A stretch of DNA of 12,940 nucleotides from a virus (Duplodnaviria; Heunggongvirae; Uroviricota; Caudoviricetes). The translations under genes and the position numbers were made by a program. Positions 1 through 11,868 of this stretch are shown piece after piece (position 1 is the first letter of the stretch; every line of letters starts with the position of its first letter). The stretch is from the IMG/VR virus record IMGVR_UViG_2563366820_000007. The stretch is one strand, 5' to 3'. The notes under the pieces were generated by a model, which saw nothing but the letters and a program-made list of their open reading frames with translations, did not search any database and was not told the origin of the DNA.

Positions 1-192
1 TTAATAATCCCTCTTTTCCCATGTTTTTCCATCGGGGTCTTTACGCTTGTCACTACCTGGTAACTGCTGGTGGCGTTCCTGTTGCAGCACAACGGAAACA
101 GGCGCTGAACACCTGTTAATTTTGCTTGCTGGTTGTTTGATTCCGGCAATGCTGCGGATCATTTCCAGCATATCGGCTTCGGTGATGGTCAT
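1..192 (-). CDS. small hypothetical protein (about 63 aa), second gene of AT-rich distal cassette
   Basis: ORF on minus strand with stop at 1-3. Preferred start is the ATG at 190-192 (MTITEADMLEMIRS...), preceded by AGGAAA 5 nt upstream; alternative starts at 213 (ATG) and 219 (TTG). Lies 22 bp downstream of the membrane-protein gene on the same strand. No family recognised. Confidence 0.4.
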   Translation of the reverse strand: MTITEADMLEMIRSIAGIKQPASKINRCSAPVSVVLQQERHQQLPGSDKRKDPDGKTWEKRDY

Positions 193-241
193 AGGTTTCC
201 TATCAGCACTCATATCCAATCAATAAGTTCAATACAATGGA

Positions 242-823
242 TTATCCCGTTTTAGTGACTAACCATTGCAGAATAACGATAATTAAATATGTTAATGTGC
301 CAGTTCCAAGAAGTATTAATAATTGATAGCAACGTAGGACAATATTACTAATCGATTTTTGCATCACGATATTCACTGGCTCAGCCACACACTCTTTAGA
401 TCTTATCGATAGAATACTTGGAACTTCTGTATTTATTGATAATATTTCACATTGAATAGACTCACCAGGTGCAAGGCTTTCAAACTTGATAATATAGCGA
501 CCATCCTGTTCAATATTTTCTTCAAAATGGTGGACAGGCCAAAAATTAATATGCATTGGCTTATAGTTAAAAACCAATGATATATTAGTAGCACTTTCTC
601 GCCCTTCATTAACAAGAATAATAGATCGTGTATACACCAACTGTGAATTAGATATTACCTCACCATTGGCATTCCGTAAGGGTTCATTGAGAAGAAAAGT
701 AAATCCATGCTGATAACCATAGGATAACTTTGCCTTGCTTTTAAATCTGTTATTCAGTATCCATGTTAAAATCGCTATAAAAAAAGAAAATAGTTCTTTC
801 CCATAAAGACTAAAAAAACTCAT
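242..823 (-). CDS. hypothetical membrane protein, 193 aa, two predicted TM helices flanking a soluble domain of about 135 aa
   Basis: ORF track 242..826; the ATG at 821-823 has AAGGA about 8 nt upstream. Hydrophobic stretches LFSFFIAILTWIL near the N-terminus and LLILLGTGTLTYLIIVILQWLV near the C-terminus. GC content is visibly much lower than in neighbouring genes (roughly mid-30s percent by eye). No family recognised. Confidence 0.6.
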   Translation of the reverse strand: MSFFSLYGKELFSFFIAILTWILNNRFKSKAKLSYGYQHGFTFLLNEPLRNANGEVISNSQLVYTRSIILVNEGRESATNISLVFNYKPMHINFWPVHHFEENIEQDGRYIIKFESLAPGESIQCEILSINTEVPSILSIRSKECVAEPVNIVMQKSISNIVLRCYQLLILLGTGTLTYLIIVILQWLVTKTG

Positions 824-921
824 CACACATTTCCTTCAGTAATCTGATTCTGCTGTCAAAGTTACCAGCACTATAGTCATTCATCCACATTGCGACAAGA
901 AGGTTACAGCACGTTCAATCA

Positions 922-1219
922 CACCTTAGGAAATCTTAGGGGGCTGGTTGACACTTTCCGGCTTAAGGCCTTAATAAATCTTAATATCGCAGGTTGACAC
1001 ACTTGACACTTTTTCACGAAAAACCTTAACAAAACTTAACCATCCCTGGCATTTCTAAGCATGGCAACTTGACACTTTTCGCGATTTTTTCGGTTTTTTG
1101 ACGTGGTAAGTCTGGCGCAAAGCCAGTAACGACAGGGGTTACAGCGAGGTTGACACTTTTTCGCGTTCAGAGTGTAAAGTGTCAACCCGGCGGACGGCCT
1201 GACTTGACACTTTTTCGCG
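922..1219. repeat. array of degenerate direct repeats with core TTGACAC(T)TTTT(T)CGCG
   Basis: TTGACAC at 948, 994, 1003, 1069, 1150 and 1204, an inverted copy GTGTCAA at 1179, and a degenerate TTGACGT at 1097. The 16-mer TTGACACTTTTTCGCG is exact at 1150-1165 and 1204-1219. Interleaved second motif CCTTAnn-AAAT-CTTAnn at about 925, 968 and 1023. GGTTACAGC also recurs at 902 and 1137. Confidence 0.7.
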
Positions 1220-1232
1220 AATTTTACGGTCA

Positions 1233-1757
1233 TTAATGGGATGATTTTTCCCACTCAGCCAGGGCGTTTAGTCCTGCCTCACTCCATGTGTCCTGTTCAT
1301 CGGGACAATCGCTGGCAACATAGCATAGTTCACAACGCAGCATACGAATTGCCAGCCTGGCATTACCTCGCAAATTGTATTGTTCAAAGTAATGCTGCCC
1401 GTCGCAATCCTCAAGGCAGATAGCACCATCATCAAGAAAGTGCACTTCCCAGCCTAATTCCCCGGCTGCATCCAGCACACGCTGCTGTATGCCCTCGTCC
1501 GTTGCTGGCGCAGGGATTTTACCGTCTCTGGCCTTAACTGCTTTCCAGAACTCGCCCCACGTCATTTCCAGCGTTCTCTCTGGCCACATTTCAGAAACTG
1601 TGTCTTTTCCCTGTGCTGGTGGGCTGTTCCGCTGCTCTGTCGCTTCCACATCGATTTTTTTACCGGACATGACCACTTCGCCTTTCTCGATCCAGTCGTA
1701 AACTGTCTGGCGGCTTACGCCTTTGTGTTTGGCATATTCTGCCTTACTCATCAGCAT
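1233..1757 (-). CDS. Nu1/TerS-like winged-HTH DNA-binding protein, 174 aa (possible small terminase or packaging-related protein)
   Basis: N-terminus SKAEYAKHKGVSRQTVYDWIEKG follows the same pattern as lambda Nu1 KKQLADIFGASIRTIQNWQEQG. The C-terminal half is cysteine-rich (C..C, CDG, C..C). GGGTGAG sits upstream of the start, which lies 6 nt after the stop of the upstream gene. Functional call is inference. Confidence 0.5.
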   Translation of the reverse strand: MLMSKAEYAKHKGVSRQTVYDWIEKGEVVMSGKKIDVEATEQRNSPPAQGKDTVSEMWPERTLEMTWGEFWKAVKARDGKIPAPATDEGIQQRVLDAAGELGWEVHFLDDGAICLEDCDGQHYFEQYNLRGNARLAIRMLRCELCYVASDCPDEQDTWSEAGLNALAEWEKSSH

Positions 1758-1763
1758 TATGAC

Positions 1764-2435
1764 TCACCCTTCTTTTTCCAGTTGAGCCAGCCGCCCGGAT
1801 ATTTCTTCCAGTTTTTCCAGGGCTGGCTTGCAGGCCGCATCAATAACGTCCCGAACCATTCCGGCAAGCTGCTCATCTGCTGTCGGCGTTGTTACCTCCA
1901 CACCCGATGGTTTCCCGCCCTTATCCCAAACACCAAGCGGCACGAGTGCAACGTGATCGATAAGAAATGGCGTACCCTCAATAAAAAAATTGTCCTCGCC
2001 CATTACATCAGGAACTTCAGCCCCACCGGACGCACCACAAAACACAACCGACGGGCTGGTGGATACCTCCCCCCGTGCTTTCTGGATGTAATCGATGATT
2101 TCCTGCCCGTAAATCCGGCATACGCCCCACACCTCGTCACCGCGAATATACGGCAACATGACGGTGCCAATAATGCGCGACCGTTCGCCCACGTCTTCAA
2201 GGGTTTTGCTTTCGGGATGGTCGATAATGACGGGTACTCCGGCGCAACGTTCCAGGAACTGCGGATTGAGATAAGTTTGCGGTGAACGCCAGACAAATTC
2301 TTTTTCTTCGGCGCGGTAGGCCATTCCGGTTCCTGTGATACGCAGGTTAACCAGCCACATGTTGGAAAACTGATAAGGCGACGGTAGCTGTCCGTCCCGA
2401 ATCTGCTTCGCCGCCTCAATTTCTGTTAAAAGCAT
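1764..2435 (-). CDS. hypothetical protein, 223 aa
   Basis: Long ORF on the same strand as its neighbours, ends 6 nt before the TerS-like start. Acidic coiled-coil-like C-terminus (ALEKLEEISGRLAQLEKEG). Family not recognised; a morphogenesis or packaging role is only a positional guess. Confidence 0.55.
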   Translation of the reverse strand: MLLTEIEAAKQIRDGQLPSPYQFSNMWLVNLRITGTGMAYRAEEKEFVWRSPQTYLNPQFLERCAGVPVIIDHPESKTLEDVGERSRIIGTVMLPYIRGDEVWGVCRIYGQEIIDYIQKARGEVSTSPSVVFCGASGGAEVPDVMGEDNFFIEGTPFLIDHVALVPLGVWDKGGKPSGVEVTTPTADEQLAGMVRDVIDAACKPALEKLEEISGRLAQLEKEG

Positions 2436-2499
2436 AATGTTATCCGGTTATAAGCAATAAGCCCCGCCAAATCCGGCAGGGCTGAACTCAGCACGTTTT

Positions 2500-3078
2500 T
2501 CATGCCCCCGCGAGGCTTGCAACGTTAATTTTGACCAGGCGACGGGGAGGGATTTTGAAGGCGTTCAGCCAGACGTTCGGATCGCCCTGATATTCAGTAA
2601 TACGACGACCAGCTTCATCCATTCTTACGGTTTTACCCAAATGGCCCGGCGTGTTTTCCACGGCCCACTGAGCACTTTCCTGAGCAGCCTTGTAAATCTG
2701 ATCTTCCAGCACCGCCAGCGTTGCAGAATCTGAAACGGAACGAATATCCACATCACTGAATTTTTTAGCCAGCTTCTGTGCGCCAATTAATGCACGTTTG
2801 CGGTAATCCATCGACTTTTCACCAGCAAACGGGGCCGGAGCGCGACGGCCCATATTGCTGTATGCGGAATCCGCTTTAGCCTGGGCTTCTGCCAGTGAGG
2901 ATTCATCTTCGACTGACGCGACGATGTTTTGATTAGCGTTATCCTCTTTTATGAAATCCTGTGCGGGGATCGCATTCAGAATTTCGATAATCTCCTGCGG
3001 AGTGCTGCCCTGCGACTCTGACAGAGCGTTAACCACCTCCATCAGTTTTAATCGCAAATCTTCTTTGCTTGCTGGCAT
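2500..3078 (-). CDS. hypothetical protein, 192 aa
   Basis: ORF track 2500..3087; start preferred at MPASKEDL (ATG 3076-3078) with strong GAGAGGTGG upstream. Family not recognised. Confidence 0.55.
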   Translation of the reverse strand: MPASKEDLRLKLMEVVNALSESQGSTPQEIIEILNAIPAQDFIKEDNANQNIVASVEDESSLAEAQAKADSAYSNMGRRAPAPFAGEKSMDYRKRALIGAQKLAKKFSDVDIRSVSDSATLAVLEDQIYKAAQESAQWAVENTPGHLGKTVRMDEAGRRITEYQGDPNVWLNAFKIPPRRLVKINVASLAGA

Positions 3079-3117
3079 TTTTACCACCTCTCTTTTTTCA
3101 CCAAAAAATCACGACCA

Positions 3118-3297
3118 TCAGGCCGGACGTTCTACGGGATAAAGCGCCCGCTGCATTAAACGCCGGGCGACCTCATGAATGCTCGGAGCAATCCCCAGCG
3201 GAGAATTGCGGCGTTCCTCGTCCTGGATGCGCTGTAATGCTTCAATCTGATCACGAGCGAGTAAAACGGGTTTCACGCTGGCTTTTCTCATAGTCAT
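3118..3297 (-). CDS. small hypothetical protein (about 59 aa), basic, possible DNA-binding
   Basis: ORF track 3118..3315 begins on TTG; in-frame ATGs at 3297 and 3291 (MTMRKASVKPVLLARDQIEALQRIQDEERR...). Weak ribosome-binding site. Sits downstream of two terminators, so expression is uncertain. Confidence 0.3.
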   Translation of the reverse strand: MTMRKASVKPVLLARDQIEALQRIQDEERRNSPLGIAPSIHEVARRLMQRALYPVERPA

Positions 3298-3422
3298 ATC
3301 TTCTGAACAAAACAATGGTTATGATTGCATAAACTGAAATGACGATCTACATCATTGCAATCCATGAAACGATAACGCATGATGATCGCGTTCTTCCCAT
3401 TGACTTCAATCACCTGAAAAAC

Positions 3423-3455
3423 AAAGCCCGCAACACTTCTGGCTGCGGGCTTTTT
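3423..3455. terminator. bidirectional intrinsic terminator
   Basis: AAAGCCCGCA (3423-3432) pairs with TGCGGGCTTT (3444-3453) around an 11-nt loop. T-runs flank the stem on both strands. Confidence 0.6.
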
Positions 3456-3461
3456 ACTGGC

Positions 3462-3487
3462 ACAAAAAAGCCGGGAAAAATCCCGGC
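3462..3487 (-). terminator. intrinsic terminator downstream of the PerC-like gene
   Basis: On the minus strand GCCGGGA-UUUU-UCCCGGC followed by UUUUUUG; the hairpin is 3470-3487 and the U-tract 3462-3469. Lies 6 nt after the stop of the 3493..3780 CDS. Confidence 0.6.
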
Positions 3488-3492
3488 CTCCG

Positions 3493-3780
3493 TCACTGAC
3501 TGCAATTTTTCGATCTAGGGTATTTCCTGAATGCCTCACCATTGGGCTGATGTAATCCCATCCCGGCATGTGCCCGGCTGATGGTGTCGCGCATCTCCCC
3601 GAAATTATCCTGCCTTACTGGCGGGCGTGCTGCCTTGTGGATACATTCCGCTCGACGTTTTGCCGCCTGTTCCCGTGCCTTGTCACCGTTCGCCAGCATA
3701 ATGACCTCAGCCCACCGCGCCGCCGCTCTCCGGTACAGACCACGCGCTTCCAGTGCTTCGGCTTTACTGTCGTGAATCAT
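3493..3780 (-). CDS. PerC-family-like transcriptional activator, 95 aa
   Basis: N-terminal AEALEARGLYRRAAARWAEVI and later MGLHQPNGEAFR resemble PerC-type activators as I remember them. Its ATG overlaps the stop of the upstream ProQ/FinO-like gene (ATGA), indicating translational coupling. Confidence 0.5.
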   Translation of the reverse strand: MIHDSKAEALEARGLYRRAAARWAEVIMLANGDKAREQAAKRRAECIHKAARPPVRQDNFGEMRDTISRAHAGMGLHQPNGEAFRKYPRSKNCSQ

Positions 3781-4307
3781 GCGCCTGTTTTCTCCTTTGC
3801 TGCCCGGCGCTGACGTTTGCGCTTCTCATTCAGCGCCACCAGCCGCGTTTCTGCGTCCTGTTGTTCCTGTGGTGTCACCTCGCCGCACGGCTGGCCTTTC
3901 AGGTCGTAGCGTACCCCACCAGCCATTAAGGCGCGGTAATAGCGCGGACACTGTGCATAAGATGCCAGCGTCGCACGCAATGCCCCTGGACCGAATGCCA
4001 GCCCCCTGACGGCGAGATCCTGCAGCAGGTCGTCGAATATCCCCACCTTAAGCGGCTTCGGTGCTTCCCGGCTGAATAATTCTGGCCACAACTCAGTGAG
4101 GCGGTTAACGCGTCTGCGGTTTTTGCGCTGGCGTTTGGTCATATGCCGCCACGGTGTCGCCCCTGTGGGCTTCTGTTGCGCGTTCTGGTTACCGGGCATC
4201 ACTTTATATGCCGATGTGGTTTTATCCTGTTGCTGCGCCGCCTGCATCGTTTTCTGCGGCGTGCCGTAAATGCCTTTCGGTTTTCTGTTAATGGTCAGCT
4301 TTGTCAT
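3777..4307 (-). CDS. ProQ/FinO-family RNA-binding protein, about 176 aa
   Basis: Central segment ELFSREAPKPLKVGIFDDLLQDLA...YRALMAGGVRYDLKGQPCGEVTPQE aligns by eye with E. coli ProQ N-domain ([22 protein letters not shown]...[28 protein letters not shown]). Start at ATG 4305-4307 (GGGG upstream) or ATG 4317-4319. Confidence 0.7.
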   Translation of the reverse strand: MTKLTINRKPKGIYGTPQKTMQAAQQQDKTTSAYKVMPGNQNAQQKPTGATPWRHMTKRQRKNRRRVNRLTELWPELFSREAPKPLKVGIFDDLLQDLAVRGLAFGPGALRATLASYAQCPRYYRALMAGGVRYDLKGQPCGEVTPQEQQDAETRLVALNEKRKRQRRAAKEKTGA

Positions 4308-4321
4308 GCTTTGCCCCATCG

Positions 4322-4575
4322 TTACAACTGTCTACCGTATTAATACATCGATAATTAATGATTTTTACTAAATGGTAGACAGTGTAGATAGTTAAAATAA
4401 AAATTTTAAAAATGAACCCATAACTATCTGTTTTTATATACCCCCCCGTGGTTTAGAAATATAAAATAAACTGTCCACCTCTCTACCACATTAAAAATAC
4501 CTATATAATTCAAAACATTAATTAGTAGATGGTTGGTAGAGGGTTAAGTGTATCTGTCTACCAACCGTCTACCTT
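4322..4575. promoter_or_regulatory. AT-rich control region with GTAGAC-containing inverted repeats
   Basis: GGTAGACAGT at 4374-4383 and its reverse complement at 4326-4335, which lies in the 5' leader of the ProQ-like gene. Large inverted repeat GTAGATGGTTGGTAGAG (4524-4540) / CTGTCTACCAACCGTCTACC (4552-4571). Confidence 0.45.
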
Positions 4576-4661
4576 TACGTTTCAGCTTATAAATTTCGTA
4601 TTATGTTCTCCAACGGCGCTGATATAACATTCTGTTTTCATTTTTAACATCCATGATTTTT

Positions 4662-5055
4662 TAATTCCTCACCTGCTGCACAGTGAGAATTTATGAAGTT
4701 AATAACAATATGATTTTAAATATATTTTTAAGCACTCACTTTTTAATCCTTATATATACGCAAAAGTGAGGTAAATAGTTAAGTTTTAGTTAATATCTTG
4801 CATGGTGTGTTTTTTAACCTACCTGTTATTTTTATTACCTCATTTCTATTAACTCACCATTCCTCACTTTTGTTCCTCACTTTTTGTTATTCTTGTTCTG
4901 CTCCTCAGTCGTTTTCTTTATTGTTGTAATATGTTGTTTTGCAATGTGTTTTTAACTCCTCACTTTTTGATCTATATACAGGTGAGAAAGTGAGGAAAAC
5001 AGGGATGATTTTTAAATATTCCCTTCCCCCTCACTTTTACGCCTCACTTTTTACA
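4662..5055. repeat. iteron array, putative origin of replication
   Basis: At least 7 direct copies of CCTCACTTTT(T) at about 4735, 4862, 4875, 4968, 5029 and 5042, with degenerate copies at 4668 and 4838. Inverted copies AAAGTGAGG at 4762 and 4987 and GTGAG at 4683. AT-rich spacers. The last iteron overlaps the rep stop codon (5051-5053). Confidence 0.7.
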
Positions 5056-6463
5056 GTGGGCGCACATCATCACCGTCAATAGCGATTACGCCGTCACCTT
5101 CCAGCTTGTACAGCCAGCGCCGGAAGTTTTTCATCTCATACCCCAGCTTTTTCATGTCATCGCGCAACAACGGAATAGTGCATTTATCTCCGCGTTGCGT
5201 GCGTGAACGAATACAACCCCATAGTGCGGCGTGATTCTCCGTCTTGTTCCCGGCTTCCTCGATGCGCTCCAGTTCAACCGGCGAACGGGGCTTATCCTCC
5301 AGCACCAGCGACGTGATTAACTCCCCGCCTTCATCCTTGAAAAGCTCAACCTCGCGCAAATCGCAAGCCATTTCTTTCAGTTCCTCCGCATCCTTCATCT
5401 TGGTACATGCGATAACCAGGGCTTCACTGCCTGCACCTTCACGGCGTATCCGGTACTCTGCATCCAGTGCTGCACGAAACGCACTGGAACCGCGCGCACC
5501 CTTTGTTTCATCCTTGCCGGAATGATGAATTACCAGCACTGTAGCGCCTGTACGCCGTTTCAGTTCGTCACATCCATGGACAAATGCCCCCATATCCCGC
5601 GCATCATTTTCATCGCTGCCACCAAAGCAACGCGCCAGAGTATCCAGAATAATCATGCGTACAGGTTTACCCGTTTCCTGCTCAACCTGTCGGGCAGCAA
5701 TAACCATTTCATCAACATCACTCGGTGCGGCCGGAAAAATTGGACGATTTACCAGGTATAGATTTTTCACCTGCTCACTGTTCACCAGTTCCCATGCCTT
5801 GATACGACGAGGAACACCGATCCCGCCCTCACCAACGACATACATCACCGCACCATGTACAACCCTGCGACCTCCCCACGGGATACCGGTAGCAACATGA
5901 CACGCCCACGAACACGCAAGGAACGACTTATAAGAACCGCTCGCACCGTATGTGCTACATAGCGAATTAGCCGGAATCACGCCCTTAACTACATAGCTAA
6001 GCTGTGAATCATATCCTTCCGATCCAATGCTCATTGGTAGCGTGGTTTTTCGCTGGCTGTATTGCTCGTCAGTAAGCATTTCTTCGCGCTCTGCCTGTTC
6101 GCGGATCCGTTGCAGGTAATCGCGCCAGTTCTCCGGCTCCTGGTCGGTGATGCCTTTGTATAATTTCGCCTCCTGTACGCCAGCCAGCGCCAGTTTTTCA
6201 GCGATAGCGTTGATCTGGATTGGCTCTATCTCCCCCGCGATATAAACACGCGCAAAGCGGCGTTCATCGTCGACAATGCGGATATTCGCCAGGTCTGCCA
6301 GTTGCTTTGGCCCCAGATAAACAGGAGGCACGTTATCGCCATGTTTTCGTCCTTCGCTTTCAATCCAGTGTTGAGCATGGGAGTAAGCGTCCGCCCCGGC
6401 AAAAATGATTACCTCTGTGAATTTATCCTTCGGCTGATATTTCAAATTCGGTGCGTTTTTCAC
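5051..6463 (-). CDS. RepA-like replicative helicase (RecA-fold P-loop ATPase) with an N-terminal domain of about 150 aa
   Basis: GTG start at 6461-6463 with GGAGGT 6 nt upstream, overlapping the stop of the upstream gene (GTGA). C-terminal half carries a P-loop-like GASGSYKS, a Walker-B-like MIILDTL and a VLVIHHSGKD motif, typical of RSF1010 RepA / DnaB-like helicases. An iteron origin follows immediately. Confidence 0.8.
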   Translation of the reverse strand: MKNAPNLKYQPKDKFTEVIIFAGADAYSHAQHWIESEGRKHGDNVPPVYLGPKQLADLANIRIVDDERRFARVYIAGEIEPIQINAIAEKLALAGVQEAKLYKGITDQEPENWRDYLQRIREQAEREEMLTDEQYSQRKTTLPMSIGSEGYDSQLSYVVKGVIPANSLCSTYGASGSYKSFLACSWACHVATGIPWGGRRVVHGAVMYVVGEGGIGVPRRIKAWELVNSEQVKNLYLVNRPIFPAAPSDVDEMVIAARQVEQETGKPVRMIILDTLARCFGGSDENDARDMGAFVHGCDELKRRTGATVLVIHHSGKDETKGARGSSAFRAALDAEYRIRREGAGSEALVIACTKMKDAEELKEMACDLREVELFKDEGGELITSLVLEDKPRSPVELERIEEAGNKTENHAALWGCIRSRTQRGDKCTIPLLRDDMKKLGYEMKNFRRWLYKLEGDGVIAIDGDDVRPL

Positions 6464-6774
6464 TTCTTACCTCCCCGCTCACGAATAATTTCACGTACTG
6501 TCCTGATGCGTTCCGCGCCCGTGACGCTCATGATTTTGTCGATGTCGCTTAATTCTGCTGGTGGCGCTTTACTTACAAGGATGAATTCCCTTTCAAAGCG
6601 CATATGTGACGACACGCAGGGATGCGCATACCCTTCGCGGATATAGGTCACACGATAAGCACTCACCGTTTTTACCGTTATCTGACTGCCGTATTTATCC
6701 CGGAAAATATCGCCGGGGCGAATTTCAGGCCGAGAGAGACCGCTGGCAGTAAAGCCAGAATTTTTCTTTTTCAT
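6460..6774 (-). CDS. hypothetical protein, 104 aa, translationally coupled to rep
   Basis: ATG at 6772-6774 with AGGAAAA upstream; stop overlaps the rep GTG start. Family not recognised. Confidence 0.55.
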   Translation of the reverse strand: MKKKNSGFTASGLSRPEIRPGDIFRDKYGSQITVKTVSAYRVTYIREGYAHPCVSSHMRFEREFILVSKAPPAELSDIDKIMSVTGAERIRTVREIIRERGGKK

Positions 6775-6778
6775 GGTT

Positions 6779-6979
6779 TTATTTTCCTGTCAGCAGTTCC
6801 GGTTTTATTCCTGCACGAATACAGAGTTCAGAAAAGCCTTCTACCGTACTTACAATTTCATTATTTCGCAGTCGGCATTGTGATTTCACGTTCCCTTTAT
6901 CCAGGTAAACCAGTACGCGTCCGGTGAAATCATCTGGCACATTCAGGGTAATTGTCATTGTTGCTGGCTGATTACCCAT
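6779..6979 (-). CDS. small hypothetical protein, 66 aa, single copy of the FTG module
   Basis: ATG at 6977-6979 with GGGGGTG upstream. Contains DDFTGRVLVYLDKGNV...SELCIRAGIKPEL, paralogous to modules in the upstream 121-aa protein. Start overlaps the upstream stop (ATGGGTAA). Confidence 0.5.
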   Translation of the reverse strand: MGNQPATMTITLNVPDDFTGRVLVYLDKGNVKSQCRLRNNEIVSTVEGFSELCIRAGIKPELLTGK

Positions 6980-7337
6980 GATGCACCCCCTGAATGACCT
7001 GATAGCCGCAACAGGTCAGCAATTCGATAAATTCCGGTAATGTGCCGAAACAGCAATCATCACGCAGCTGTTCGCGGGATACCTCGACGCCGTTTTCGTA
7101 GTGACTCACCATACGTCCGGTAAAATGCAGATCATCATCGTGATGGCTCGTTGACGGCTTAATCAGTCGCGCACGTTCTGCCAGTTCCAGCAATGCTTCA
7201 ACACTTCCGGCAATTGCACCATCCGGCAGGTGGTAATTACGCACTATGCGCCCATTCTCCACATTGACCAGTAGCTGCCCGGTAAATTTCTCGTCAAACT
7301 GAATGCTGTTAAGGTCAGAAATTGACAGGTTATGCAT
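6972..7337 (-). CDS. hypothetical protein, 121 aa, two tandem FTG modules
   Basis: ATG at 7335-7337 with AGGGGGTAAG upstream. Two internal repeats: FTGQLLVNVENGRIV...SVEALLELAERARLIKP and FTGRMVSHYENGVEV...LPEFIELLTCCGYQV. Overlaps the upstream stop (ATGCATAA). Confidence 0.55.
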   Translation of the reverse strand: MHNLSISDLNSIQFDEKFTGQLLVNVENGRIVRNYHLPDGAIAGSVEALLELAERARLIKPSTSHHDDDLHFTGRMVSHYENGVEVSREQLRDDCCFGTLPEFIELLTCCGYQVIQGVHHG

Positions 7338-7695
7338 GGCTTACCCCCTGACGAATACGGGCGGCGAATACCATCACACAGCCATCAGGAGATTGCTGGC
7401 GTGCTTCCTGTTCGCTGGTGGCCTCGATGTGAATTACACGCGGTTGTGCCGTACTCAGGGCGATAAAACGCCAGATAAAATTGTTCTCGCATTTCTGAAT
7501 AAACAGCGTGTTTTCTTCGCGCCCTTTCCATGTTGCCGAGATATAGCCCATATCATTGAGCATCTCGCAGGCATCCACCAGCGTATCAGCGGCTACGTGT
7601 ACAGTGTTTTTACCGTCAGCCATGCAATCACGGTGCACCGCCAGGAAGGTGTATATAAATTTAGGGTGAGTTTGGGTATGCTGTGTTCCAGCCAT
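7330..7695 (-). CDS. hypothetical protein, 121 aa, first gene of the replication-side operon
   Basis: The track ORF 7330..8466 is trimmed to the ATG at 7693-7695 (MAGTQHTQ...), which has GAGGT 7 nt upstream. Internal duplication KFIYTFLAVHRD / NFIWRFIALSTAQ. Family not recognised. Confidence 0.55.
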   Translation of the reverse strand: MAGTQHTQTHPKFIYTFLAVHRDCMADGKNTVHVAADTLVDACEMLNDMGYISATWKGREENTLFIQKCENNFIWRFIALSTAQPRVIHIEATSEQEARQQSPDGCVMVFAARIRQGVSHA

Positions 7696-7784
7696 AATCG
7701 TTACCTCGTTTAACGGTTTGGTTAGACGCCCCGCTACTGCCGCAAACAGTTCGGGGCGTTGTCGTTTACATCCTCTTACTGAGG

Positions 7785-7882
7785 TGTGATTTAAATTAAA
7801 TTCAACTGAATCACAGGTCAAGTATTTTTTGTGATTCTTTTTTGTGTATACTGAATCACATCTTTTGTTTAGGAGAATGCAC
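7785..7882 (+). promoter_or_regulatory. divergent promoter/operator region
   Basis: Alternating half-sites TGTGATT (7785, 7830) and AATCACA (7810, 7854) at a spacing of about 22 bp. Extended -10 TGTGTATACT at 7842-7851. AGGAGAA ribosome-binding site at 7871-7877 before the ATG at 7883. Confidence 0.5.
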
Positions 7883-8188
7883 ATGGCAAAAAACACTATC
7901 AACGACAAATCAAAACAGATTTCAATTCGTATCCCACATGATGCTTTTGATGGCATGGAATCCGTAAAACTGGACGGCGAAAGCAACGCCGGATTCATAG
8001 TAACCGCCATGCGTGGTGAGATCGCCCGCCGCCAGGCAGAAGGAAGAGGAGAAAACCCCCTGGTTTCTTCGCTTGATGCACTGGCACAGGTGGAAAAAAT
8101 CGGAGTCAAAGCTGCCGAGGAGATCGGGCAGCTCGTCACCGTCGCGCGTGAAGAACTCCAGCGCCGCAAGGCCAAAGAACAGGAGTAG
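7883..8188 (+). CDS. small putative transcriptional regulator, 101 aa
   Basis: The only convincing plus-strand gene; ATG at 7883 with AGGAGA upstream (the track ORF starts earlier on GTG at 7844). Segment KQISIRIPHDAFDGM could be a ribbon-helix-helix-like beta strand followed by helices (weak). Divergent from the rep operon with operator-like repeats in between. Confidence 0.5.
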   Translation: MAKNTINDKSKQISIRIPHDAFDGMESVKLDGESNAGFIVTAMRGEIARRQAEGRGENPLVSSLDALAQVEKIGVKAAEEIGQLVTVAREELQRRKAKEQE

Positions 8189-8458
8189 TTGATCAGCACC
8201 GGGCGACCAGAAAAAATCGTATCAGTCGCGCCACCAGCAAAATTTTTTGCTTTCCGGACGACGTGGCCAACGACATTTTGCAGCAAAATATTCTGCATTT
8301 CTGGCGTGCTGTAGTAACGGTGATCAGCGCCTTCACTCTGTGCGACCACAACGCTATAATCTGCCTCGTAGACAGTAAGCAATATGGTGCTACAGGTAAT
8401 TCGTTCACAAAGGCGCTCCGGCAACGGGGCGCTTTCTCTTTTTGTAACGGTCAGAGCG

Positions 8459-9259
8459 TTACACATGGCTGTTTTCCTCCATGCGACGGGCTAACCAACG
8501 CTGCGAAAGGCGAATTAATTCAGCTTTCCGCTGGTGGTAGTCCTGGCCTAACTCAATCAGCGTGATATTGCTCTGCTCAAGGTAAGAAAGGTGCTCAAGC
8601 TGCAACGTGCTCATGTGGTCGCGTGGTTCGCCTGTAATGCCGTTCGCCAGTGCCCACTGTTTTGCAGTCATGCCGCCCAGCACGATACGCGCCAGCATAT
8701 TGGCTTCCGTGGTGTAATGGTGCTGTAGAGTGTTTTTACCCAGTTCAGCCCGGTACGCCTCCAGCGCGGCACACATTGGCTTAAAGTAGCTGGCAACTGT
8801 GATACGGGCTTTCAGTTCCCGGCGTAACGCTGCGGAACGTACAGGCGCAACCTTGTGTAGCTCTTCCTCGCATTTGATGAAGTACTGACGAACGGCGCGG
8901 CCCTGTTCGGTGCGTTCGACCATCGCCAGTTCTTTCGCCATGTTGATAGTGCTCAGGTAGTCGTGCTCTACACGTTGGCGAGATTTTGCGCTCACCGGAT
9001 TGGGGGAGGTCAAATTTTCTACGAATTCAAAATCCACGCCCTTTTTAAATCCGTACTCATCAATGCGTCCTTTAATCCAGGTTGTGAAATCACGCTTCAC
9101 ACCCAGCGCCTTATGCAACGCTCTGGCGCTAACAATATTGGTTTCACGCCCGCCAATAACGCCGGAAATAACCGGGATAATTTCGCCGAAATTTTGTTGG
9201 CTCTGGTTTTCAGGCCGAACGAATCCCTGCCCCTGTACGGGCGTTTTTCGCAGTTTCAT
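8459..9259 (-). CDS. phage antirepressor-like protein (AntA/KilA-type), 266 aa
   Basis: N-terminal region NIVSARALHKALGVKRDFTTWIKGRIDEYGFKKGVDFEF resembles antirepressor N-domains; C-terminal half is helical. Domain assignment from memory only. Confidence 0.55.
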   Translation of the reverse strand: MKLRKTPVQGQGFVRPENQSQQNFGEIIPVISGVIGGRETNIVSARALHKALGVKRDFTTWIKGRIDEYGFKKGVDFEFVENLTSPNPVSAKSRQRVEHDYLSTINMAKELAMVERTEQGRAVRQYFIKCEEELHKVAPVRSAALRRELKARITVASYFKPMCAALEAYRAELGKNTLQHHYTTEANMLARIVLGGMTAKQWALANGITGEPRDHMSTLQLEHLSYLEQSNITLIELGQDYHQRKAELIRLSQRWLARRMEENSHV

Positions 9260-9337
9260 AAAAACTCCTGCTATCGAATTAAGTTACTTTTTATTTGCTG
9301 GTGGATAGCTGGGACTTCTGGCCCCGTAGCCATTTAA

Positions 9338-9535
9338 TCAGGTAGCTGTTCCGCGTGATTCCGCAATACGCTGATTAATCCACTCGTCAATTTCACTCTC
9401 AACGAAAGCAATCGCTCGCGAGCCAATTTTAACTGATGCAGGAAATTTACCTTGCCCCATAAGGCGATAAATCCATGCCTTGCTATATCCAGTTCTACGC
9501 TGAACTTCCGTTAAACGAATAAGCGTATTTGACAT
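9338..9535 (-). CDS. alpA: AlpA-family transcriptional regulator / excisionase-like protein, 65 aa
   Basis: LTEVQRRTGYSKAWIYRLMGQGKFPASVKIGSRAIAFVESEIDEWI matches the AlpA (Phage_AlpA) pattern. GAGGT sits 4-5 nt upstream of the ATG. Confidence 0.85.
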   Translation of the reverse strand: MSNTLIRLTEVQRRTGYSKAWIYRLMGQGKFPASVKIGSRAIAFVESEIDEWINQRIAESRGTAT

Positions 9536-9602
9536 ATATTTACCTCATAACGTCTACTCAATTTGACGAGGTAATCATGGCACAGAAATAACGAATATTT
9601 TC

Positions 9603-9753
9603 ATACCCTCATGCCTAATGGTAATCGGGAATATTTTTACCCTAAGGGTAATAGTAAAATTGATGGGAAAGCATACAAAAATACCCTAAGGGTGAGGTCT
9701 GATTACCCTTAGGGTGAGACGCGAACAAAACATGAGATACCACTAGGGTAAGG
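9603..9753. promoter_or_regulatory. cluster of palindromic operator-like sites upstream of alpA
   Basis: TTACCCT-A-AGGGTAA at 9637-9651 (perfect 7-bp arms), TACCCTAAGGGTG at 9682-9694, TTACCCTTAGGGTGA at 9703-9717, and degenerate TACCACTAGGGTAA at 9738-9751 and GCCTAATGGTAA at 9612-9623. Confidence 0.65.
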
Positions 9754-9755
9754 CT

Positions 9756-10526
9756 TCATCGTTTGATAGGACAGGCGACAAGCTCAATAGATGCGGCCTG
9801 TCGGGAGGTAAAACCTCGTTTTTCAAGCTCAGTAGTAATCGCGCCCTGGTTTCCCCTGGTTGCGCGATCATTCTCTGGGTCGTAATTGGCCCACTCTCTG
9901 TTTCTAATATCGATAGCCAGATACAATGGGTCATCATCACGATACGCCCTTAGCAAAATCGGGCGCTCCTTTTCTAACTGATTTACCCGCTCCCTTAACG
10001 ATTCATTTTCTTTTTCCAGCATTGCAATTCGGGATAAAAAATCATCATCTGTACGCAACTCTTTATGTTCAATATTGCTTCCTTGCGCCTCGTTATTTTC
10101 AGAAGAGTCAGCACATTCCAGATTCATTAACCCGTCAAGGATTTCTGGGAAAATTTCGAAAATTTCATTTCTTCTGAATCCCATTGCCTCAAATTCGGCA
10201 TCTTCCCAATAACCAGATACCAGAAAACCACTCTCATCCCTCTCACAAGGTAAACAACCACGCTCCCTAACCGTATCCAGTTTTGCATAAAGAAAGTTAA
10301 AATCAGGTCTCCACTCAAACGGATCCGAAGAATAAAGTTCCACCTCATTTAATGAATTTACTGTGTACAGGGTAATACCTGGATTTACTGTATTTATTCT
10401 CTTGAGTATCCAGGTAATGACTTCTGAAATATTAGCATCAACAACTTTAAATACATCATCAAGAAAATCACGTAAATAAATAAACTCTTTTTTATATTCA
10501 TTTAATTCGGCATGAATATCAACCAT
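9756..10526 (-). CDS. hypothetical protein, 256 aa, orphan cargo between int and alpA
   Basis: The track ORF 9756..10607 is trimmed to the ATG at 10524-10526 (MVDIHAELNEYKKEF...). Central coiled-coil-like segment LSRIAMLEKENESLRERVNQLEKERP. The 5' two-thirds of the gene is AT-rich. No family recognised. Confidence 0.55.
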   Translation of the reverse strand: MVDIHAELNEYKKEFIYLRDFLDDVFKVVDANISEVITWILKRINTVNPGITLYTVNSLNEVELYSSDPFEWRPDFNFLYAKLDTVRERGCLPCERDESGFLVSGYWEDAEFEAMGFRRNEIFEIFPEILDGLMNLECADSSENNEAQGSNIEHKELRTDDDFLSRIAMLEKENESLRERVNQLEKERPILLRAYRDDDPLYLAIDIRNREWANYDPENDRATRGNQGAITTELEKRGFTSRQAASIELVACPIKR

Positions 10527-10527
10527 A

Positions 10528-10582
10528 CGCACACCTCTGCGCCCTCTACCGTAGTGGCTGTGCCAGTCCGCAGAGGTGTGCG
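10528..10582 (-). promoter_or_regulatory. perfect 14-bp inverted repeat (hairpin) covering the ribosome-binding site of the 256-aa gene
   Basis: CGCACACCTCTGCG (10528-10541) and CGCAGAGGTGTGCG (10569-10582) separated by 27 nt. In the minus-strand mRNA the 3' arm contains GAGGUG directly upstream of the AUG at 10526. No U-tract follows, so it is not a typical intrinsic terminator. Confidence 0.6.
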
Positions 10583-10653
10583 GATTTTCGGGAGCGACCC
10601 TAGACACAGCCTTTTCTTAATCGCTCAAAGTCTACTACTGTATACTCAACCAG

Positions 10654-11868
10654 TCACCCGCATTTTCCGAACTCACCATGCACCACATTTCCGCCATGCT
10701 CGAGCGAATCCATATAGTCGGCGTACCACTGGAGCATCTCGCGCCGCCCGTCCAGATATTGCGCATGATTGTACGTGCCACGAATTGAGTTCTTATCAAC
10801 GTGTGCAAGCTGCGTTTCTATCCACGCGGTGTTATAGCCCTGCTCATGCAAAATGGTGCTCATGGTGTGCCGGAATCCATGACCAGTAACGCGCCCGGCA
10901 TAGCCGATACGACGAATGAGCACATTCATCGCCATTTCACTCATTGGCTTACTGTGGTGAATACGACCGGGGAAAATAAACTGATACTGGCCTGTCATGT
11001 TTTTTAACTGCTCCAGTATTTTTATCGCCTGTTCTGGTAATGGCACACAATGCGGACGGCGCATCTTCATTCGTTCTTTAGGCACTTCCCACAAACGATT
11101 ATCAAAATCGATCTCCTGCCATTCTGCCTGCCGTAATTCCCCGGGTCTGACACCTGTCAGAATTAATAGCCGCATTGCCAGTTTGACGATCTGGCTTCCG
11201 GTGTACGTATTAAAAACGCGGAAAAATTCCGGCAGTTCGTCGGCCTTCAAATAGGCGTAATGCTCTTTTTTATGTGGAGCAAATGCGCTCACCAGGTCAG
11301 GGGCTGGATTATATTCGGCGCGTCCGGTGATGATTGCGTACCGGAACACCTCGCCGCATCGCTGGCGAACCTTACGCAATTTTTCAGTCGCACCACGGTC
11401 ATTAAGACGGGAAAGAACCGCCAGCAATTCCATCGGCTTAATTTCTGCGATCGGCCTACCGCCAATGTACGGAAAAACATCTTTTTCAAACGTCTCGATC
11501 ATTTCCTCGGCGTATGACGATGACCACCTGTCGATCCGCTTTTCGTACCATTCGCGAGCAATACCCTCAAAAGTATTGCCAAATTTGCTCGCCTGTTCTC
11601 GCTTTTGGGCTTTTCTGGCCTCACTTGGATTTATACCACCAGCAAGAAGCCTTTTAGCCTCATCCCTTGCCGCCCTGGCATCAGACAGAGACACATCAGG
11701 GTATACCCCCAACGACAACATTTTGGGCTTTCCTGCAAACCTGTAGCGCAGTCGCCACCCTTTCGAACCGTTCGGCTCAATGAGCAACGAAAGCCCGTTA
11801 CCGTCATTGAGTGTATAAGCCTTTTCTTTCGGCTTCGCGCGCCTGATGGCAAGGTCTGAAAGCAGCAT
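10654..11868 (-). CDS. int: P4-family tyrosine integrase, about 405 aa
   Basis: N-terminus MLLSDLAIRRAKPKEKAYTLNDGNGLSLLIEPNGSKGWRLRYRFAGKPK is a typical P4-type integrase arm-binding domain. C-terminus carries HGFRHT and RGTYNHAQY catalytic motifs. Adjacent to a tRNA gene. Start at ATG 11866-11868; an upstream in-frame ATG at 11907 is also possible. Confidence 0.9.
   Translation of the reverse strand: MLLSDLAIRRAKPKEKAYTLNDGNGLSLLIEPNGSKGWRLRYRFAGKPKMLSLGVYPDVSLSDARAARDEAKRLLAGGINPSEARKAQKREQASKFGNTFEGIAREWYEKRIDRWSSSYAEEMIETFEKDVFPYIGGRPIAEIKPMELLAVLSRLNDRGATEKLRKVRQRCGEVFRYAIITGRAEYNPAPDLVSAFAPHKKEHYAYLKADELPEFFRVFNTYTGSQIVKLAMRLLILTGVRPGELRQAEWQEIDFDNRLWEVPKERMKMRRPHCVPLPEQAIKILEQLKNMTGQYQFIFPGRIHHSKPMSEMAMNVLIRRIGYAGRVTGHGFRHTMSTILHEQGYNTAWIETQLAHVDKNSIRGTYNHAQYLDGRREMLQWYADYMDSLEHGGNVVHGEFGKCG

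Follow-up and report, generated by a model that had tools for sequence, protein, structure and literature searches.

Anatomy of the int-distal end of the island

IMG/VR record IMGVR_UViG_2563366820_000007 is a 12,940-nucleotide (nt) stretch of DNA assigned to Caudoviricetes and is referred to below as the window. As judged from its sequence, it is a satellite of the phage-inducible chromosomal island (PICI) type at tRNA-Gly(CCC) of Escherichia coli KTE146, and window positions 1-10823 are 100% identical to KTE146 contig KB733122.1 (locus L018). We concentrated on the end of the island distal to the integrase gene (int), where all genes lie on the minus strand, and in particular on ORF194, an open reading frame (ORF) for a protein of 193 amino acids (aa), and on the 63-aa small ORF downstream of it. 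An initial annotation had presented these two ORFs as an AT-rich two-gene cargo at the distal end of a phage satellite and as the strongest candidate there for a new defence or exclusion module. The features of this region are the following (window coordinates):

242..823, minus strand: ORF194 coding sequence, 193 aa
193..~915, minus strand: discrete AT-rich insert, the occupant of slot A, comprising ORF194 with 94 nt of upstream DNA of its own and 49 nt of 3' flank
870..898, minus strand: promoter-like site TTGTCG-17-TATAGT, which lies within the insert and precedes the ORF194 start region by 44 nt
1..192, minus strand: small ORF, 63 aa, ATG at 192, ending exactly at window position 1
1..64, minus strand: variable 3' tail of the small ORF, the slot B junction; nearly all siblings match only from 64-66 onward
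Slot A, located between the small ORF and the repeat array: occupied by ORF194 or empty
Slot B, after the small ORF: AbiD and SieB; SieB; DUF4747 and a hypothetical protein; gapS1; bSEFIR/TIR; a SocA/Panacea pair; a 662-aa 'RNA-binding' protein; or nothing
921..1232, no strand assigned: TTGACAC(TTT) repeat array between the helix-turn-helix (HTH) gene and slot A, with repeat families D1-D7 and inverted repeats I4, I5 and I14-I17
1233..1757, minus strand: 174-aa protein with an N-terminal HTH, similar to the terminase small subunit (TerS); a backbone gene directly upstream of the array

According to the ORF list and the translation, ORF194 starts with ATG at 823 and stops at 242-244, and an alternative in-frame GTG start is present at 826 (the minus-strand ORF being 242-826). 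Its GC content is 0.328 (0.262 at third codon positions), against 0.476 for the island, which bears out the lower GC reported for this ORF. The description of both genes as AT-rich did not hold, since the small ORF has a backbone-like GC content of 0.479 and only ORF194 is AT-rich. The distance between the genes, given earlier as 22 bp, is 49 nt when counted to the ATG at 192, the start used by homologues of the small ORF; 22 nt is obtained only from the upstream TTG at 219.

In strain ETEC1732 (L002), the equivalent of the small-ORF ATG (window 192) is joined via 5 nt to the equivalent of window ~916, so the segment from 193 to ~915 is a clean indel of ~0.72 kb. The 49-nt 3' flank of the insert provides a Shine-Dalgarno sequence (AGGAAA) for the small ORF, and a Shine-Dalgarno sequence precedes this ORF in both versions, with the insert (window) and without it (L002). 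No terminator-like site was found after ORF194, i.e. before the small ORF. Slot A was also empty in the sibling loci L027, L028, L030 and L031, and it is empty in most islands; across the sampled siblings it was seen either empty or with ORF194. Of 5,426 complete E. coli genomes, 15 contained ORF194 DNA and 139 the conserved segment of the small ORF (window 65-192). In nine genomes ORF194 is 98.8-99.5% identical, with backbone flanks at ~96%, and near-identical copies reside in islands at different integration sites, with replication modules of the AAA_25, DUF927 or D5 type. The presence of near-identical copies in ~96%-identical backbones at different sites points to a recent spread of the insert.

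The left edge of the window does not coincide with the end of the island, as had been assumed for the proposed cassette. In KTE146 the 63-aa ORF is followed by a gene for a 328-aa Abi_2 protein (PADLOC AbiD, E 5e-62) and then by one for a 181-aa SieB-family protein, both supported by Pfam hits (Abi_2 and SieB), and past them lie host genes (GH15, GhoT/OrtT and ETT2 secretion genes); the hotspot beyond the left edge corresponds to L018 11062-12792. Because the window stops at the stop codon of the small ORF, recognisable defence or exclusion genes fall just outside it. Homologues of the small ORF have a conserved 42-aa N-terminus in common, after which at least four types of C-terminal tail occur, and since siblings match the window only from 64-66 onward, the slot B junction is placed inside the 3' end of this gene (~64). 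The tail found in the window occurs together with AbiD and SieB in L018 and in L027. The two slots vary independently, since TUM9812 (L027) has AbiD, SieB and the same tail without ORF194, and E21845/O/A (L032) has ORF194 with slot B empty. In a Citrobacter island slot B carries bSEFIR (PADLOC, E 1e-113). We also observed that the 662-aa 'RNA-binding' protein of slot B has a weak similarity to the pAgo/Aga N-terminal domain.

By comparison of the siblings, slot B is the true defence hotspot of the island and slot A a second, binary (empty or occupied) position. We therefore describe the anatomy, with high confidence, as a single-gene insert in slot A, a backbone small ORF and a hotspot in slot B. 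The rank of strongest defence candidate given to the ORF pair is thereby lost to the recognisable systems of slot B (AbiD and SieB here, bSEFIR and GapS1 in siblings), and when related islands were compared for their cargo, different genes were seen in slot B and only ORF194 in slot A. The designation as accessory satellite cargo holds for ORF194 and not for the small ORF. Defence genes are described to cluster next to cos/pac sites and element ends (PMC9122126; PMC12829572), and the placement of ORF194 agrees with this pattern. In the hotspots of satellites and P2-like phages (Rousset et al. 2022, PMC9122126) and in the lateral-transduction model (PMC12829572), variable accessory DNA lies between the packaging region and the element end, as it does here. 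Unlike the cargo of those hotspots (PMC9122126), ORF194 is located outside the swapping slot, upstream of a conserved anchor gene.

The small ORF as a terminal backbone gene

In islands that lack ORF194, the small ORF directly follows the HTH/TerS-like gene and the array. A 94-aa relative was found in an element resembling the capsid-forming PICIs (cf-PICI; L025 4782-5066, next to yejO), where it is terminal and directly follows a DUF1441 TerS gene; the same element carries a primase, a single-stranded DNA-binding protein (SSB) and a protease-capsid fusion. The Citrobacter island has an 86-aa form. The N-terminus and a C-terminal Y-x-W-K-K-P-x-x-x-R-R motif are common to the 94- and 86-aa forms and to the 59-60-aa proteins of E. 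coli, and the latter are therefore internally shortened versions; the tail in the window is yet another variant. Different satellite families thus have the N-terminus of the small protein in common.

The small ORF is only weakly constrained, with a ratio of non-synonymous to synonymous substitution rates (dN/dS) of ~0.3-0.65 over the first 42 codons, where changes are few. Its AlphaFold2 (AF2) model has a mean predicted local distance difference test (pLDDT) score of 64, with a single confident helix at residues 5-16, and no transmembrane (TM) segment was found in it. The segment was also considered as a lambda-type cos site and rejected, as no GGGCGGCGACCT-like site was present at two or fewer mismatches; no lambda-type cosN was found. 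As a conserved terminal gene of several satellite lineages, present with or without ORF194, the small ORF belongs to the backbone and not to the cargo. Conservation as a core gene across related islands had been named as grounds against a cargo role, and on these grounds the small ORF, present in 139 genomes, is ruled out as cargo. It is best used as an anchor gene.

The ORF194 family and its genomic contexts

Searches of Pfam, PADLOC, PHROG and NCBIfam gave no match for ORF194 or the small ORF, and in the defence catalogue both remained without a PADLOC family even at E<=1. The earlier statement that neither protein was recognisable stands in this respect, but the small ORF does have backbone relatives beside TerS. 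A word-indexed search returned only 14 relatives of ORF194, all from Enterobacterales. An exhaustive phmmer search of 1.84 billion cluster representatives returned 459 relatives at E<=1e-3 and 230 at E<=1e-10, each representative standing for a cluster at 50% identity. Nearly all of the 459 are ~190 aa long and align end to end. The longer relatives were examined as possible domain fusions and none was informative: P0154 (1,336 aa) is a low-complexity repeat artefact, and the remaining ones have over-called N-termini or a linker insertion. Against seven homologues the dN/dS of ORF194 was 0.09-0.24 wherever dS was unsaturated. The gene is under purifying selection, and the 459 representatives together with these ratios show that it is not a chance feature.

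In every context sampled the family is represented by a single gene without a conserved partner. Several homologues lie in mobile elements. One is the last gene of a different PICI in Hafnia, which encodes a Terminase_2 TerS and a capsid-like protein of 321 aa and lacks the small ORF; host fis/dusB follow directly. Another is at the int-distal end of the P2-like Yersinia phage vB_YenM_324, and in a P2-like element of Pantoea a homologue lies between the tail genes and int. A further homologue precedes an AbiJ_NTD4/Abi_C gene by 9 bp, and its island also codes for an integrase, a resolvase and an XRE regulator; the homologue in L014 is near an integrase and a PDC-S21 (SIR2-like) gene.

Other homologues are found in chromosomal settings. 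In Serratia entomophila (L003 10001-10582) a lone homologue is just upstream of a UDG-family gene and rpoD, and in Enterobacteriaceae RIT714 (L009 10001-10582) a homologue occupies the same spot, beside an Hcp-Tlde1 islet. The other side of this spot differs between the two genomes, with an HPP membrane protein in S. entomophila and Hcp-Tlde1 in RIT714, and this arrangement suggests a small chromosomal variable spot. In Yersinia massiliensis the homologue is next to a YhgA-like transposase, and on contigs of Zeimonas, Burkholderiales, Collimonas and a sphingomonad, homologues lie among unannotatable or ordinary genes.

Predicted structure and topology of ORF194

The AF2 model of ORF194 (pLDDT 82.3) has a helix at residues 2-27, nine beta strands at 33-141 and a helix at 160-192, and the two hydrophobic segments of the protein have mean Kyte-Doolittle hydropathy values of 1.71 and 1.70. 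Model and hydropathy agree with the initially described N- and C-terminal TM helices around a soluble domain of ~135 aa. The product of ORF194 is thus predicted to be an inner-membrane protein consisting of a TM helix, a ~135-aa beta-sandwich and a second TM helix, and this architecture is kept across 20 diverse family members. Their alignment, which extends to 25% identity, contains the conserved positions N72, G74, P89, N93, W95, P96, L117, P119, P135, R141, G173 and Y179, which are structural in kind, and neither a catalytic-type constellation nor a family-wide conserved Cys pair. An invariant Gly and a nearly invariant Tyr on the second TM helix (TM2) suggest a role in helix packing or oligomerisation. 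The mean net charges in the 20 members were as follows:

N-terminal tail: -0.7
after the first TM helix (TM1): +2.65
before TM2: +1.9
C-terminal tail: +0.55

By the positive-inside rule, the short terminal tails would be periplasmic and the sandwich cytoplasmic. The sandwich resembles binding modules of the carbohydrate-binding module (CBM) families CBM2/CBM3, pilins, cohesins and Ig-like domains, at 7-13% sequence identity, a match that is generic for folds of this class. Whereas those domains are extracellular, the sandwich of ORF194 is predicted to be cytoplasmic and tethered to the membrane at both ends.

Possible functions of ORF194

The function that we tentatively favour for ORF194, without giving it even odds, is that of a stand-alone, single-gene membrane protein for phage exclusion or abortive infection. 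An anti-phage role is favoured because the gene is sporadically distributed, foreign in composition and mobile among satellites, temperate phages and islands; because it is found at the ends of elements and next to genes of the Abi, SIR2 or defence-hotspot kind; and because it is stand-alone and encodes a membrane-tethered, non-enzymatic binding domain. In such a scheme, a ligand-binding-type beta-sandwich would be held on the cytoplasmic face by the two TM helices and would bind a component of the incoming phage at the inner membrane; in response, the TM pair would either prevent genome entry or early development or form a leak through which the membrane potential collapses. Our confidence in any specific mechanism is lower than that in the anti-phage function. 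A more far-reaching version, which we consider rather unlikely in its entirety, is that ORF194 founds a new and widespread single-gene anti-phage family, in which the sandwich acts as a sensor recognising a phage protein or genome complex, and the protein then either blocks entry or oligomerises through the Gly/Tyr face of TM2 to depolarise the cell; the gene would travel as a ~0.7-kb mini-cassette between satellites, P2-like prophages and islands in chromosomes.

Among known proteins, SieB of P22 and lambda (PF14163), SieA and T4 Imm are comparable, being, like ORF194, small (~180-190 aa), single-gene, inner-membrane accessory proteins at the ends of temperate elements, and a SieB gene is present ~1.6 kb from ORF194 in the same island. 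ORF194 differs from them in having a beta-sandwich clamped between N- and C-terminal TM helices and shows no sequence or profile similarity to them.

Several observations weigh against an anti-phage function. ORF194 has no homology to any known defence, superinfection exclusion (Sie), Abi, holin or immunity family, and its zero families at E<=1 were obtained with a library (PADLOC-DB 2.0.0) that did recognise the neighbouring AbiD, bSEFIR and PDC-S21. A relationship to SieB was rejected, with no Pfam match at E<=0.1 and, when the family profile was aligned by hhalign with SieB of the island, a probability of 0.13% (E 0.45). Roughly half of the distant contexts, which were sampled locus by locus (a narrower pattern retrieval gave six loci), are chromosomal neighbourhoods that are either ordinary or uninterpretable. 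The topology has the positive-inside rule as its one basis, and CBM- and Ig-like sandwiches are more typical outside the cytoplasm. The promoter-like site at 870..898 has 9 of 12 consensus matches, and the number of such sites in the region does not exceed the shuffled expectation, so it is weak evidence for expression in an uninduced lysogen. Finally, ORF194 is in slot A, inside a presumed late/packaging transcription unit, and not in slot B with the recognised systems.

Assignment to other known systems was also rejected. For the Abi families (Abi_2/AbiD, Abi_C/AbiJ) there was no Pfam or PADLOC match, and Abi_2/AbiD and AbiJ_NTD4/Abi_C are separate neighbouring genes. For multi-gene systems combining TM and TIR proteins, such as Rst_2TM_1TM_TIR of the P2/P4 hotspots, a TIR/SEFIR gene is found downstream only in Citrobacter, the small ORF has no TM segment and no PADLOC match was obtained. 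Near-identical ORF194 is accompanied by AbiD and SieB, by SieB, by GapS1, by the Panacea pair or by nothing. Holins usually have fewer than 150 aa, consist mostly of TM segments and are encoded next to an endolysin or spanin. A holin or lysis regulator was rejected for ORF194, a 193-aa protein with a 135-aa folded beta domain, no PHROG match and no lysis genes in the islands examined.

The rival that survives best, although we regard it as doubtful, is a host-fitness or envelope moron, which mobile elements would carry as they do other lysogenic-conversion genes and which would alter envelope physiology or protect the cell from a membrane-targeting bacteriocin or an effector of the type VI secretion system (T6SS). 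Prophage and satellite ends also host morons unrelated to defence, the fold is a generic binding module, and the defence database gave no match. Homologues in chromosomal neighbourhoods without mobile elements or defence genes (Serratia, Collimonas, Yersinia massiliensis) fit this explanation too, as does the one beside the Hcp-Tlde1 T6SS islet. That homologue, however, is encoded on the opposite strand at a distance of ~0.9 kb from hcp, whereas an immunity gene would usually be found downstream of the effector, and a sandwich predicted to be cytoplasmic fits poorly with immunity to toxins acting in the periplasm. The adjacency of ORF194 to genes of the Abi, SIR2 or defence-hotspot kind, repeated in several independent types of element, also argues against a moron.

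It is improbable that ORF194 is a life-cycle gene of the satellite or phage, acting as part of a late/packaging operon in lysis timing, in membrane events of particle release or in exclusion of the helper or of sibling satellites to the advantage of the satellite itself. The gene does lie between the HTH/TerS-like gene and the small terminal gene and is co-oriented with both; no terminator-like site precedes the small gene, for which the insert preserves a Shine-Dalgarno sequence, and homologues follow TerS and capsid-like genes in Hafnia and tail genes in P2-like elements. Yet its presence in 15 of at least 139 related E. coli islands shows it to be dispensable for the satellite cycle, in Serratia it is a lone chromosomal gene without a mobile element, and with a 135-aa folded domain and no endolysin neighbour it is unlike a holin, antiholin or spanin.

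The initially proposed two-gene defence or exclusion cassette is very improbable: the genes are adjacent, co-oriented and 49 nt apart, and a bSEFIR/TIR protein comes after the pair in Citrobacter, in a superficial likeness to multi-gene TM and TIR systems, but each gene occurs without the other (15 versus 139 genomes; the small ORF without ORF194 in most islands, ORF194 without the small ORF in Serratia, Hafnia, P2-like elements and others), their GC contents differ (0.479 versus 0.328), the small ORF is weakly constrained and has one confident helix and no TM segment, and its relatives are backbone genes beside TerS in another satellite type.

Satellite backbone and additional features

PICIs are recognised by a tyrosine integrase at a tRNA att site, AlpA, a primase or replicase, a size of ~10-15 kb and the absence of tail and lysis genes. 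The island, whose tRNA is Gly(CCC), has a backbone composed of an integrase, an AntA-domain protein, an AAA_25 RepA helicase, ProQ/FinO, a DUF2213 protein and the 174-aa HTH/TerS-like protein. Integrase domains, AAA_25 RepA, AntA, ProQ and an int-alpA RNA thus agree with the PICI type, as do AlpA and PerC in the identical locus L018. Neither the ORF list of the window nor the L018 annotation contains tail or lysis genes.

The initial annotation correctly placed ORF194 directly after the TTGACAC repeat array. Copies of TTGACAC(TTT) begin at 948, 994, 1003, 1069, 1150 and 1204, with an inverted copy at 1176-1185, and the array is kept with the backbone in L002 at 96% identity. The array probably provides binding sites for the adjacent HTH protein, as a packaging or cosB-like element. 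The 174-aa protein matched the terminase small subunit phrog_57 over residues 1-42 (E 1.6e-7) and HTH_17 (E 6.5e-4). In the Rpp/cosB module of E. coli cos-type PICIs (PMC6739421), a small winged-HTH TerS-like protein is encoded beside a repeat-bearing non-coding region near the int-distal end, as here. Rpp proteins have 144-153 aa (PMC6739421), against 174 aa here, and the likeness concerns the neighbours of ORF194 and not ORF194 itself. Identification of the 174-aa protein as Rpp was rejected, as a phmmer search matched it to none of the PDB chains, RppC included (for Rpp, none at E<=1), and its N-terminal HTH/TerS similarity is generic.

Rfam revealed no known RNA in 1-1300, and its only matches elsewhere in the window were the tRNA and the int-alpA RNA (RF02996; 10543-10610, minus strand; 48.4 bits against a gathering score of 35.8). 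The latter overlaps the start of a 283-aa ORF downstream of int. This ORF (9756-10607, minus strand), located between int and alpA, has a GC content of 0.42, no PADLOC match and a weak coiled-coil/bZIP-like Pfam match. It is called as 256 aa in L018, and its position is occupied in the Hafnia PICI by an unannotated 230-aa gene. The 283-aa ORF may represent a further accessory gene or a regulatory gene.

The segment 4320-5050, between the ProQ and RepA genes, has a GC content of 0.308 and contains only two small ORFs (43 and 47 aa). The matching interval of UTAK-5 (L001) carries an SDH-family Clp-fold serine protease, a small hypothetical gene and insertion sequence (IS) elements. This segment may be a further accessory slot, empty in the window. 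The 378-aa minus-strand ORF at 7330-8466 is probably spurious. In its place the L018 annotation calls an opposite-strand 101-aa gene, equivalent to window 7883-8188, plus strand (ORF 7844-8188, plus strand); no other gene of the island is on this strand, and the 101-aa gene diverges from the rest in the manner of a regulator or repressor gene. The 223-aa DUF2213 protein and a 195-aa protein (1764-2435 and 2500-3087, minus strand) match parts 115-328 and 409-544 of the 545-position phrog_6216. They may be a split version of a protein that is single, and possibly head-related, in other elements.

Implications

Defence genes as accessory cargo at the ends of satellites are already known, as are membrane exclusion proteins encoded by a single gene, and the immune cargo of PICIs was reportedly treated by Fillol-Salom et al. 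(Cell, 2022). What is new is the ORF194 protein family with its architecture, and the two-slot map with a small anchor gene. Whatever ORF194 does, the map of the island is corrected: it has an anchor gene, a hotspot that starts in the 3' end of the anchor and a binary slot upstream of it. The small ORF can serve as an anchor to mine cargo in these Enterobacterales satellites. ORF194 with its upstream DNA measures 0.7 kb, which is small enough for direct testing. If it is a defence or exclusion gene, it would add an unannotated single-gene family of ~460 clusters at 50% identity across Proteobacteria, with an architecture that is not used by the systems described so far.

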